Part shown: piece after piece, positions 8,957-12,617 of the stretch
Numbering within the stretch: the stretch's first letter is position 1
Layout: every line of letters starts with the position of its first letter
Source: an uncultured Dehalococcoidia bacterium
Lineage (GTDB): Bacteria; Chloroflexota; Dehalococcoidia; Lucifugimonadales; UBA3495
NCBI GenBank assembly: GCA_950072105.1
Contig: CATMOE010000073.1
Span: forward strand, 1-14,764
Length of the DNA stretch: 14,764 nucleotides
Reading direction: 5' to 3'
The notes under the pieces: generated by a model
The model's database searches: none
What the model saw: only the letters and a program-made list of their open reading frames with translations
Told to the model about the DNA's origin: nothing
Made by a program: the position numbers and the translations under genes

Positions 8957-9328
8957 ATGCCACGCGTTGTTCACTTCGAGATATATGCCGATGAGCCCGA
9001 CCGGGCCCTAGGATTCTACACCGAGGTTTTTGGCTGGACGGTCCAAAAAGCGGAGTTGCCCAGTGGGGACTATTGGTTCCTGACCACCGGCCCTGACGAC
9101 GAGGCGGGCATCAACGGCGCAATCATGCCGCGGCCCGACCCGGCTGCCAAAACAACAAATTACGTGGACGTGCCCTCGGTGGACGATTACACGGCCAAGA
9201 TTCAGGCTGCCGGCGGTACCGTGGCCACGCCCAAAATGTCCATTCCAGGTTTAGGCTACGCTGCCGTCTGTCTGGATACGGAGGGGAACACCTTTGGGCT
9301 GTTCGAGGACGATCCTTCCGCCCAGTGA
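8957..9328 (+). CDS. VOC (glyoxalase/bleomycin resistance) family protein
   Basis: VVHFEI..FYTEVFGW..GINGAI..AAGG..DTEGNTFGLFE. CAGGAG RBS. Confidence 0.93.
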   Translation: MPRVVHFEIYADEPDRALGFYTEVFGWTVQKAELPSGDYWFLTTGPDDEAGINGAIMPRPDPAAKTTNYVDVPSVDDYTAKIQAAGGTVATPKMSIPGLGYAAVCLDTEGNTFGLFEDDPSAQ

Positions 9329-9446: not shown

Positions 9447-10394
9447 ATGGCCGACGTTTTTGGCACCGGTGAATTTCTTTACACCCACGTACCCGATTGG
9501 GAGAAGCTGCCCGATGGTATGACCTTCAAGGAGTGTCCCGGAGTCGCGGTGGACTCCCGGGACAACGTTTATGTCCTCACCCGTGGCGAACACCCCATCA
9601 TCGTGTTCGACCAGGAAGGTAATTTTATCCGCACCTTCGGTGAGGGTCACTTTAGCGCGAACCGCACTCACGGGCTGTATATCGCTCATGACGACTCCTT
9701 GCTAGTTGCCGACGACGGTCTCCACACCATCCAAAAGTTCGGTCCCGAGGGCGATAAGCTGATGGAGATCGGCGAGAGGAACCATCCCGCCCCGGCATGG
9801 AGCGGCCAGGCCTTCAACCGCCCTACTTCGGCCGCCATCATGCCCAGCAACGGGGATGTGTACATCTCAGATGGGTACGGCAACTCCCGCATCCACGTCT
9901 ACTCCGGGTCCGGCGACTACAAATTCTCTTGGGGCAGTCCCGGCATCGACGCCGGTCAGTTCATCCGCCCGCATAACATCGCCGTGGACAGCGACGATAA
10001 GGTCTACGTAGTGGACCGGGAAGCCCACCGCATACAGATATTCGACTCCCGGGGCAACTTCCTAACCATGTGGAATAATATCCACCGCCCCGACTCGATG
10101 GTGCTGTGGCAGGACCATATCTACGTCGGTGAATTGAACGGCATGGGCGGAGTTGACGAAGCGCCCGGCCTGGGCCACCGTGTCACCGTTTACGACTTGG
10201 ACGGCAACCGGGTTTGTATGTTCGGCAGCCCCGAAGAGGGCGAGGGCCCCGGCCAGTTCATCGCTCCCCATGGCATCGCGGTCGATTCCAAGGGTGACGT
10301 GTACGTATCCGAAGTGTCCTTCACCATCCGCGGCTCCAAGATGGACCCGCCCAAGGTGTTGCGCAGCTTCTCGAAATACGCTAGGCAGTGGTAG
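9447..10394 (+). CDS. NHL-repeat beta-propeller, peptidyl-alpha-hydroxyglycine alpha-amidating lyase (PAL)-like
   Basis: Repeated P.GVAVDS.D.VYV / GQF..PH.IAVDS units. PAL-like SDGYGNSRI and VDREAHRIQIF. GAGGTG RBS. Confidence 0.9.
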   Translation: MADVFGTGEFLYTHVPDWEKLPDGMTFKECPGVAVDSRDNVYVLTRGEHPIIVFDQEGNFIRTFGEGHFSANRTHGLYIAHDDSLLVADDGLHTIQKFGPEGDKLMEIGERNHPAPAWSGQAFNRPTSAAIMPSNGDVYISDGYGNSRIHVYSGSGDYKFSWGSPGIDAGQFIRPHNIAVDSDDKVYVVDREAHRIQIFDSRGNFLTMWNNIHRPDSMVLWQDHIYVGELNGMGGVDEAPGLGHRVTVYDLDGNRVCMFGSPEEGEGPGQFIAPHGIAVDSKGDVYVSEVSFTIRGSKMDPPKVLRSFSKYARQW

Positions 10395-10416
10395 GCGAAC
10401 GGTAAGCGGTTGGACG

Positions 10417-10499
10417 CACCCCCCACCTTAATCCTCCCCCGCAAGGGGGGAGGAGATTAGTCCCTTCCCCCTTTACGGGGGAAGGTTAGGATGGGGGTG
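10417..10499. repeat. REP/REPIN-like palindromic doublet (family A, no insert)
   Basis: caccccccaccttaatcctcccccgcaaggggggaggaga-ttag-tcccttccccctttacgggggaaggttaggatgggggtg, which matches 347-454. Confidence 0.85.
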
Positions 10500-10557
10500 A
10501 AAACGCTACGCTGGGCCCACGTAAAAATACCAACCCGCTCCCAAGACCGGCAGGTGA

Positions 10558-10602: not shown

Positions 10603-11661
10603 TTGCAAGATGTTGGTGAAACTACCACCGTTGTTTGGAACGACGCTTTAGAAGCCATTGAGCGCTGCTATGAGTTGGGCTGGGGCGACGGGCTACCCTT
10701 GGTGCCGCCGACCCAGGGCCGGGTAGCCCAGTTCTTGGAGGCGGCGGGCAAGGCATCGGGCGAGGTAGTCGGAGAGATCCCCGAGCGGCGCCGGGAGATC
10801 ACGGCGGGAAAGGTGGCCGCCAACGCCGTGATGGCCGGGTGTTTGCCTGAGTACATGCCTGTGGTGCTGGCCGCTACCGAGGCGATGCTGGCCCCGCCTT
10901 TCAACCTGGTTGGTCCTTCTTCCAGCATGGGCGGATCCGCGGTGCTGGTAATAGTGAACGGACCGGTGGCGCAAAAGATCGGCGTCAACTCCCGCAACAA
11001 CCTTTTCGGGCCGGGAAACCGGGCCAACGCCACCATTGGCCGGGCCATACGGCTGATTCTAATGAATGCCTGCGCCGCCATCCCTGGACTGTTCGACCGG
11101 AGCGTTATCGGCCATCCCGGCAAGTACACCTACTGTATCGCCGAGGCTGAATCCGAAACCCACTGGAACCCACTGCACGTGGAACGGGGCTTCAAACCAG
11201 ACCAAAGTACGGTCACCGTATTCGCCTCGGAAAGCCCCCGCCAAGTCCGTTCGGTTGGGCATCCCGAGGCCATCTTGCACGCCCTCGCCGACACGGCCTC
11301 CTCTCTGGGAACCAACATGTCAACCTCGGGATCGGTGGGTAGCCGGGACGCCGGGGTTCGGCAAGGGGAGATCGTGGTCACCGTCGCCGGGAATTCTGCC
11401 CTCTGGCAGGACTGGACCAAGAAACGGGTCAGGGACCACTTATATGCCCGCATCCGCCGGTCGGTCGCCGATCTGAAAGCGGCCCAGGTATTCCCCGGCG
11501 AAGTCGAGCCGGGAGACGAAGAGCGTTATGTCTCCCTGATTCCGGAGCCGGAGGACATCCTCTTGATCTTTGCCGGTGGCGAGGAGTCCAACATGTCGTC
11601 GGTGATTCCCAGCTGGGGACCGAAGGTGGGGTCTACGGCCGTTACCAAGGAAGTGAAATAG
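10603..11661 (+). CDS. Conserved uncharacterised protein, putative partner subunit of the UGSC selenoprotein
   Basis: 352-aa ORF with a TTG start 7 nt after GGAGGAG. Motifs GWGDGLPLVPPT, KVAANAVMAGC.PEY.PVV, GNRANATIGRA, GHPGKYTYCIAE, LHVERGF. I recall this family adjacent to UGSC genes but cannot verify it here. Confidence 0.85.
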   Translation: MQDVGETTTVVWNDALEAIERCYELGWGDGLPLVPPTQGRVAQFLEAAGKASGEVVGEIPERRREITAGKVAANAVMAGCLPEYMPVVLAATEAMLAPPFNLVGPSSSMGGSAVLVIVNGPVAQKIGVNSRNNLFGPGNRANATIGRAIRLILMNACAAIPGLFDRSVIGHPGKYTYCIAEAESETHWNPLHVERGFKPDQSTVTVFASESPRQVRSVGHPEAILHALADTASSLGTNMSTSGSVGSRDAGVRQGEIVVTVAGNSALWQDWTKKRVRDHLYARIRRSVADLKAAQVFPGEVEPGDEERYVSLIPEPEDILLIFAGGEESNMSSVIPSWGPKVGSTAVTKEVK

Positions 11662-11667
11662 CTGGGG

Positions 11668-11733
11668 GAAATCCCCCCAACCCCCCTTTACGAAAGGGGG
11701 GCTTAGATTGCTTATAGCTGAATGCTGATAGCT
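11668..11733. repeat. Family A-related hairpin followed by a heptamer array
   Basis: aaatccccccaacccccctttacgaaaggggggc (about 11669-11702), then gcttata-gctgaat-gctgata-gct (11710-11733) before the GGAGG RBS. Confidence 0.7.
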
Positions 11734-11746
11734 CTTGGAGGTTTCT

Positions 11747-12289
11747 ATGACTCAGAAGAACGAGTATGTTTTAGTCGATCCGACTACCCAGGCCATCGTC
11801 GCGCCTTTTGATGGGGCTCCCCGATTACCTACCGTGGCCGGGATCAGGTTGGGAATCATTGATGACAGCAAGCGCAATGCCGACGTTTTGTTGGAGGAAT
11901 TGGCCGAGGTCTTGCGCACCCGCTATGAGATCGCGGACGTGCGCTGGCACCGTAAGCCCAGCGCTTCCAGGCCTGCCGACCCGGCGGCCATAAGGGAGTT
12001 GGCGGAAACTTGCGATGCGGTGGTGATCGCCATCGGGGATTGAGGGTCCTGCAGCGCGTGCAGTGTGCACGACGGGATCCACGTAGAGAACGCCGGCATA
12101 CCATCGGTTACCATTTGCACCGACCGTTTCATCCCTACGGCCAAGGGGATGGCCAAGATGTGGGGGTCTGAAGACTACCCCACAATATTCACCCAGCATC
12201 CCATTGAGAACATGAACAGAGAACAACTACGGCAGCGGGCCGAAGAACTGGCTCCTCAAGTGGTTGGAGTGCTGGTCGGCGGGCAATAG
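11747..12289 (+). CDS. UGSC-family selenoprotein (180 aa, Sec99 encoded by TGA 12041-12043), UxxCxxC motif
   Basis: ATG 11747 follows GGAGG. The two track ORFs share one frame separated only by TGA, and read-through gives DAVVIAIGD-U-GSCSACSVHDGIHVENAGIPSVTICTDRF...HPI. A SECIS-like hairpin follows. Confidence 0.92.
12044..12080 (+). promoter_or_regulatory. Candidate bacterial SECIS element
   Basis: Lower stem gggtcctg (12044-12051)/cgggatcc (12073-12080), 8 bp including 2 G-U. Internal loop, then perfect upper stem cgtgca (12057-12062)/tgcacg (12066-12071). Apical loop GUG starts 19 nt after the UGA. Confidence 0.7.
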
Positions 12290-12384: not shown

Positions 12385-12567
12385 TTAACCCCGCATCTCC
12401 GGTGGTAACAGGTTGGGGATGGCGTCGTCGATGGGATAGATCTCGTCGCACTTGTGGCAGATTAGAGATCCCTGGATCACTTCGTCTCCTTCTTCGGTTT
12501 CCACCTTCAATTCCAGTTCGCTCTTGCAAACCGGACAGGCCAGAATGTCCATCAGGTCCTTCTTCAA
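12385..12567 (-). CDS. Trm112/YcaR family zinc-ribbon protein
   Basis: KKDLMDILACPVCK...GSLICHKCDEIYPIDDAIPNLL. Start placed at TTG 12567 just after GGAGGA (track start is 12600). Confidence 0.9.
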   Translation of the reverse strand: MKKDLMDILACPVCKSELELKVETEEGDEVIQGSLICHKCDEIYPIDDAIPNLLPPEMRG

Positions 12568-12617
12568 GTCTCCTCCAGCAAGTTTGCGGCGTTCAGCCAT
12601 TGGCTGTCGGCCATTTT

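Follow-up and report, generated by a model that had tools for sequence, protein, structure and literature searches.

The stretch of DNA analysed here (hereafter the window), 14,764 nucleotides from an uncultured Dehalococcoidia bacterium, contains two open reading frames, 11735-12043 and 12065-12289. As was pointed out in a preliminary description made from the sequence alone, they share one frame, and their sole separator is the TGA codon 12041-12043. This codon was proposed there to encode selenocysteine (Sec) and to join the two frames into one protein of the UGSC family. The locus thus raises the question of whether the TGA is decoded as Sec and what kind of enzyme the product is. The features on which the answer depends are collected in Table 1.

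Table 1. Features of the UGSC locus (positions counted from the first letter of the window)
Feature	Position	Strand	Basis
NHL-repeat beta-propeller gene, conserved neighbour upstream of the UGSC-partner pair	9447..10394	+	PF01436, ortholog synteny
Partner gene (352 aa); family without a name, 'Unknown_1' domain in Zhang and Gladyshev (2008)	10603..11661	+	pairing, motif, conservation
GGAGG, Shine-Dalgarno-like, 5 nt upstream of ATG 11747	11737..11741	+	sequence
UGSC-family selenoprotein gene, 180 aa, ~19.7 kDa when read through	11747..12289	+	PF24696, NF041046, ortholog conservation
In-frame TGA, very likely read as Sec99	12041..12043	+	same column in paralogs and other loci, Cys homologs, Sec machinery
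Cys102 (12050-52, invariant) and Cys105 (12059-61, variable) of the UxxC(xxC) site	12050..12061	+	43-member alignment
bSECIS upper stem-loop, 19 nt past the UGA (stem of 6 bp; 3-nt loop whose first base is G)	12057..12071	+	folding, conservation, covariation

With the TGA taken as Sec, the UGSC frame starts at ATG 11747 and ends with the TAG at 12289. The read-through protein matched PF24696 at E 1.6e-58, with a score of 198 bits against a cut-off of 25; the match spanned the TGA and took in positions 2-171 of the 172 in the model. Its score for NF041046 was 159.3 bits, above the cut-off of 125, whereas the separate halves scored 50.8 and 87.3 bits, both below it. The family assignment made at the outset was therefore right, and similarity was continuous on both sides of the TGA. 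In a gapless comparison of 18 orthologs, the parts of the gene before and after the TGA were each approximately 80% identical; for the two parts, the differences amounted to 0.48 and 0.52 at third positions, against 0.08 and 0.11 at second positions. This third-position bias of the changes downstream of the TGA indicates that the post-TGA part is under coding constraint. Among 105 protein matches, 92 stopped at the residue directly preceding Sec, which bore out the expectation that gene callers would split the gene; 6 read through with Cys aligned to the TGA column, and the others were 2 sequences with Arg-Ser and 5 fragments or chimeras of other kinds. The two Arg-Ser homologs (P0002 and P0003), in which these residues replace Sec-Gly, may represent either a degenerate allele or an assembly artefact. 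The names of close homologs pointed to SAR202 (Dehalococcoidia).

If the TGA were a true stop, the locus would be a gene inactivated by a nonsense mutation, a pair of split genes or the result of a sequencing error. The neighbouring gene 8957-9328 ends in TGA, so this codon functions as a stop in this genome, and GTG 12065 could open a 74-aa frame. However, the downstream frame has no ribosome-binding site of its own, as had been noted: no GGAGG-like motif was present in the 20 nt upstream of GTG 12065, and this GTG lies within the SECIS hairpin. Moreover, the codons between the TGA and the GTG, correctly read in the preliminary description as GSCSACS, encode the most conserved residues, and the Cys homologs are single chains. 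All 12 UGSC paralogs in the genome contained a single TGA each, always at query column 99, and TGA occupied this column in all 21 closest orthologs as well. Altogether, the stop was TGA at that column in 42 of 42 loci examined (12 in this genome, two of which were fetched twice, and loci from 23 relatives), and the codon was never TAA or TAG among the 150 UGSC matches listed. Assemblies from three other sequencing runs spanned the TGA codon unaltered: X1 and X2 were identical, and X4 had two differences elsewhere. A contig from a fourth run, X10, had 7 differences, 2 of them at positions not listed. Considering the span of the PF24696 match, the 12 of 12 paralogs and the contigs of the other runs, it could be concluded that the TGA is neither a chance occurrence nor a sequencing error, and a true stop at this position is very improbable.

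Reassignment of TGA throughout the genome, to Trp or otherwise, would also explain an open frame, but nothing except the in-frame TGA itself speaks for it. Ten of the 11 long ORFs in the window contained no internal TGA, and TGG was used in all of them; tRNA-Sec was the only tRNA with a TCA anticodon found; and homologs had Cys, not Trp, at this position. The use of TGG, the presence of tRNA-Sec only and the Cys homologs effectively refute such a reassignment, whose probability is close to nil.

A search for the Sec machinery, suggested in the preliminary description as a check, showed that the genome (92% complete) encodes tRNA-Sec, SelA, SelB and SelD, and SelD of this genome has an in-frame TGA too. 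UGSC was found in 33 of 40 relatives, 30 of which had SelA and the remaining 3 SelB. Supported by homology, by the Cys homologs and by the Sec machinery, the recoding proposed at first may be upheld: UGA 12041-12043 very likely encodes selenocysteine. At least half of the locus words were contained in 14 RNA runs. The contigs from RNA runs covered neighbours on both strands evenly, and for this reason transcription could not be inferred from them; a promoter scan at the locus found none.

The hairpin downstream of the UGA was studied by folding and by comparison with related sequences. Its stem arms are 12057-62 and 12066-71, and a variable lower stem lengthens it to 12044-12080. The available text of PMC13188914 gives as constraints for bSECIS elements a loop of 3-9 nt, a stem of 4-16 bp, a G in the first two loop positions, a distance of 16-37 nt from the UGA and an MFE <= -7.5. 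The hairpin agreed with these values, its energy being -9.7 to -19 kcal/mol. Folding energy alone was unremarkable (z -0.13 for 60 nt and -2.0 for 47 nt). Codons +5 to +9 were identical in 21 of 21 orthologs, the window included, and codon +10 was identical in 20; of 85 comparable degenerate codons elsewhere, none was invariant. In 39 sequences, which are kin and hence not independent, 97.9% of 234 cells paired, and at two pairs both sides had changed. The five paralogs that have Trp at position 105 showed G-C instead of one C-G pair, via a third-position change on the opposite arm. One paralog (L016) paired poorly in this stem. The SECIS hairpin 12057-12071 is thus synonymously frozen and covarying. 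It would almost certainly be bound by SelB for the insertion of Sec99.

UGSC-containing proteins are named in PMC1976440, PMC2398784 and PMC13188914, and in the accessible part of PMC2398784 UGSC is the fifth most numerous selenoprotein family of the Global Ocean Sampling data, with 255 sequences. A 2026 review, as far as its available text goes, still describes UGSC as largely uncharacterised. The statement of the preliminary description that the function of the family is uncharacterised therefore stood, but the novelty was overstated, since this selenoprotein family is already catalogued and both Pfam and NCBIfam have a model for it. As a family member, the gene is unexceptional: the full-length match, the UGSC motif and the Sec/Cys pairing are common to both, and nothing excludes membership. 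What is added here to the family as published is a GrdB-related site, a predicted flavodoxin-like fold and 12 partner-paired copies. The preliminary description mentioned neither the partner gene nor the SECIS hairpin, the multiplication of paralogs or the apparent relation to GrdB.

The UxxCxxC site attributed to the protein was present, but its third Cys does not define the family. Cys102 was found in 43 of 43 aligned members, whereas position 105 was Cys in 30, Trp in 5, Asn in 5 and Gly in 3 of them, and Cys in 5 of the 12 paralogs. Because Cys105 varies, the core of the UGSC family is UxxC. The invariant or nearly invariant residues were Sec99, Gly100, Cys102, Asp109, Glu114, His108, Lys70 and His151. 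TIGR01917, the model of glycine reductase selenoprotein B (GrdB), was weakly matched at E<=0.05 by 37 of 43 members (best 2.4e-7), and the similarity was limited to model positions 333-412 in the C-terminal half. When the profile of UGSC was compared with that of 12 GrdB-like proteins of the same class, the alignment extended over 94 columns and matched Sec to Sec (79.7%, E 1.5e-5). UxxCxxC is the GrdB motif in the available text of PMC13188914 and PMC6778437; the Sec of UGSC is in register with that of GrdB, and the third Cys is variable in both families. UGSC resembles GrdB/F/H and PrdB in having U-G-x-C-x-x-C in register, a similar next helix and strand and a two-subunit logic, and the SECIS hairpins in the GrdB genes of this genome are about as far from the UGA. 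In contrast to GrdB and PrdB, which have ~430 aa, UGSC has 180 aa and lacks the N-terminal region of GrdB; its partner is not a pyruvoyl proprotein, and its genes lie outside grd/prd operons.

Membership of UGSC in the GrdB family itself was rejected. The scores were far below the family cut-offs (24.5 vs 602.2 bits for TIGR01917 and 21.5 vs 65.45 bits for TIGR01918). No gene with PF09338, the pyruvoyl proprotein domain of GrdE/PrdA, was found at any UGSC locus of the genome, and its 3 PF09338 genes adjoin its 3 true GrdB genes. In the open-access papers found to contain both names, the passages on UGSC draw no connection between UGSC and GrdB.

The genome contains several other selenoprotein genes of the glycine and proline reductase type. 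The three true GrdB-like genes (G000:C45:8277-9545, C78:4149-5417 and C13:60195-61481) are each located beside a GrdE-like gene, and two of them encode U-x-x-S-x-x-S instead of UxxCxxC. One GrdA gene with an in-frame TGA was found at C28:1995-2435. Three short PrdB-like genes (G000:C105:1818, C31:33805 and C25:46196) contain a U-x-x-C site whose U is encoded by an in-frame TGA, with a SECIS-like hairpin at equal spacing.

The fold of UGSC was predicted with AlphaFold using Cys in place of Sec (pLDDT 93). The model consisted of five strands alternating with helices and placed Sec99 at the junction of strand 3 with the helix that follows. The structures that matched it had folds of the flavodoxin-like or periplasmic-binding type (best Z 10.7 over 125 aligned residues, rmsd 3.1), among which no single match stood out, and neither a thioredoxin-fold chain nor a GrdB or PrdB structure was among the matches listed. 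In the accessible text of PMC2398784, UGSC was supposed to have a 'likely Trx-like fold'; the model favours a flavodoxin-like fold instead. Judging from the model, Sec99 probably lies where strand 3 ends and a helix starts. The flavodoxin-like domain around it is probably homologous to the C-terminal part of GrdB/PrdB, in which their Sec is located. Neither UGSC nor its partner had a significant match in the PDB by sequence or by profile, and in the Atlas no protein with a name from outside PF24696 resembled a Cys-containing UGSC homolog.

The gene next to UGSC was then considered as its partner. All 12 partner paralogs of the genome were on the same strand as a UGSC gene and next to it: 5 were upstream, 6 downstream (one cut by the contig end) and 1 was fused. 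Among 151 genomes of the phylum, all 14 with UGSC also had the partner, 2 had the partner alone and 135 had neither. The partner family is large, with 4787 clusters at 50% identity (E<=0.001), and 25 of 150 distant partner representatives contained a fused UGSC sequence, in either order. Two cysteines, Cys80 (10840-42) and Cys178 (11134-36), were each conserved in at least 90% of sequences, and the motif around the conserved Cys was the same as in the Unknown_1 segment in Fig. S1A of PMC2398784. The UGSC/Unknown_1 fusion was thus already published in 2008 (PMC2398784); there it was an occasional fusion domain in a few aquatic organisms, whereas here the partner is mostly a separate adjacent gene. 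Sixty longer partner homologs included 31 with PF07992 (pyridine-nucleotide disulfide reductase), 11 with UGSC and 1 with redoxin, and several of those with PF07992 were named thioredoxin reductase at the source. A thioredoxin-reductase-type gene was also located within ~4 kb of 2 of the other 11 UGSC-partner pairs. Taken together, it is highly probable that the partner is functionally required by UGSC.

The partner had no match in Pfam or NCBIfam and showed no similarity to GrdE/PrdA (no Pfam match), and its neighbours in the Atlas were unnamed clusters. Its whole-chain model (pLDDT 93) gave a best PDB Z of 4.1 and no Foldseek match at E<=0.001. The closest structures were Fe-S class I fumarate hydratases (Z 4.1 over 195 aligned residues at rmsd 6.2, and Z 4.0 over 171 at rmsd 5.2), with a Foldseek E of 5.5e-3. 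These structures raise the alternative that Sec and the Cys residues of both proteins bind a metal or an Fe-S cluster, the pair being a hydro-lyase or metal-handling enzyme and not a selenol reductase; the two conserved cysteines of the partner and the conserved His108, Asp109 and His151 of UGSC would fit it. However, a Z of ~4 is below the best value typically obtained by chance, which is 7-8 according to the structure-search tool, the third Cys of UGSC is dispensable, and the thioredoxin-reductase fusions point towards dithiol recycling. Metal binding of this kind is therefore quite improbable. The hints of a fumarate hydratase or Toblerone fold were too weak to be used for any other reading.

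UGSC and its partner are more likely a two-part selenium redox enzyme, a distant relative of glycine reductase. There is about an even chance that the product of the single UGSC frame, with its Sec, contributes the catalytic selenol to a reductase of two subunits, the other being the adjacent 352-aa protein. By analogy, the partner would bind the substrate, as the counterpart of the pyruvoyl subunit GrdE/PrdA that accompanies GrdB/PrdB; in proline reductase, according to the available text of PMC11229817, the selenol of PrdB attacks a substrate held by PrdA. The selenolate of UGSC would attack C or S of a small organic substrate bound to the partner and reductively cleave a carbon-heteroatom bond. 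Cys102 would then resolve the intermediate to a selenenylsulfide, possibly via Cys80 of the partner, and thioredoxin with thioredoxin reductase would re-reduce it. This sequence of substrate attack, resolution by Cys102 and recycling by thioredoxin reductase, with proline reductase as the analogy, is proposed tentatively, at slightly less than an even chance.

The surroundings of the UGSC-partner pairs were compared. In 18 of 19 family-level orthologs, including the window, the NHL gene is on the same strand as the UGSC gene and ends 0.9-2.5 kb ahead of it, as found by comparing coordinates by hand; in the 19th, the two genes are on different contigs. Two more distant homologs (in G034 and G032) do not have this arrangement. 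The NHL protein matched generic propellers, and the PAM lyase domain (E 1e-19) ranked below TRIM71/Thin; no function was adopted from these matches. At the other 11 pairs, where the neighbour scan covered 68 of 91 called ORFs, amidohydrolases were found at 3, luciferase-like monooxygenases at 2, CoA-transferases at 2 and a hydantoinase at 1. These neighbours differ from pair to pair and are often catabolic or redox enzymes, and no family recurs at most loci. The UGSC paralogs were mutually 23-41% identical, and each of 24 family genomes contained 2-24 UGSC matches; the genome with 24 (G015) has 7% contamination. One UGSC copy, G032:C13:5819-6328, has two in-frame TGA codons.

This multiplicity bears on the strongest alternative, namely that UGSC does contain Sec but reduces peroxides or disulfides in general. 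Sec99 and Cys102 would then act on hydroperoxides or on protein thiols in oxidised form, and the partner would do no more than relay electrons from thioredoxin reductase. The invariance of the UxxC redox motif and the fusions of the partner with thioredoxin reductase and redoxin agree with such a function, and GrdB has a side peroxidase activity. Thiol oxidoreductases also make up most marine selenoproteins in the accessible text of PMC2398784. On the other hand, the predicted fold is not thioredoxin-like, and substrate diversification fits the many divergent copies beside catabolic genes better than a housekeeping role does. A general reductase is therefore rather unlikely. With the two-part enzyme related to glycine reductase, the substrates, taken from the catabolism of organic matter, would differ between paralogous pairs. 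It is conceivable, though not quite an even bet, that the pairs form an undescribed class of two-subunit selenoenzymes recycled by thioredoxin, in which a free-standing protein related to the catalytic domain of GrdB acts with a substrate-binding subunit of a fold absent from the PDB, and which was multiplied in SAR202 for the breakdown of dissolved organic matter and hidden by UGA-truncated gene calls.

The literature searched, which was open-access and took in few supplements, contained neither the link to GrdB nor the fold predicted here in place of a thioredoxin-like one nor the near-obligate pairing, and the string 'selen' was absent from the main text of the SAR202 literature searched. 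Now that UGSC has a defined partner, an active site resembling that of GrdB and a link to thioredoxin reductase, its long-open function becomes accessible to a two-protein assay. The expansion of UGSC in this SAR202-like family suggests a selenium-dependent side to SAR202 catabolism.

Several minor features were observed in the window and elsewhere in the genome. A small archaeal-type Trm112-like gene at 12385-12600 on the minus strand is convergent with the UGSC gene (NF038101, 100.9 vs 77 bits). Palindromic intergenic elements with G/C runs are located at 11664-11704, which in this genome is between the partner and UGSC genes, and at ~10410-10510. They are dispersed repeats with 75 and 89 blastn hits in the genome, respectively, and as such account for spikes in contig depth. 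In one paralogous pair, two small ORFs lie between the partner and UGSC genes (G000:C1:158400-158900) and presumably resemble a small toxin-antitoxin-type pair. Finally, 29 tRNA genes are clustered on one strand within 4.5 kb (17631-22111) of one G000 contig and resemble the tRNA arrays of mobile elements.
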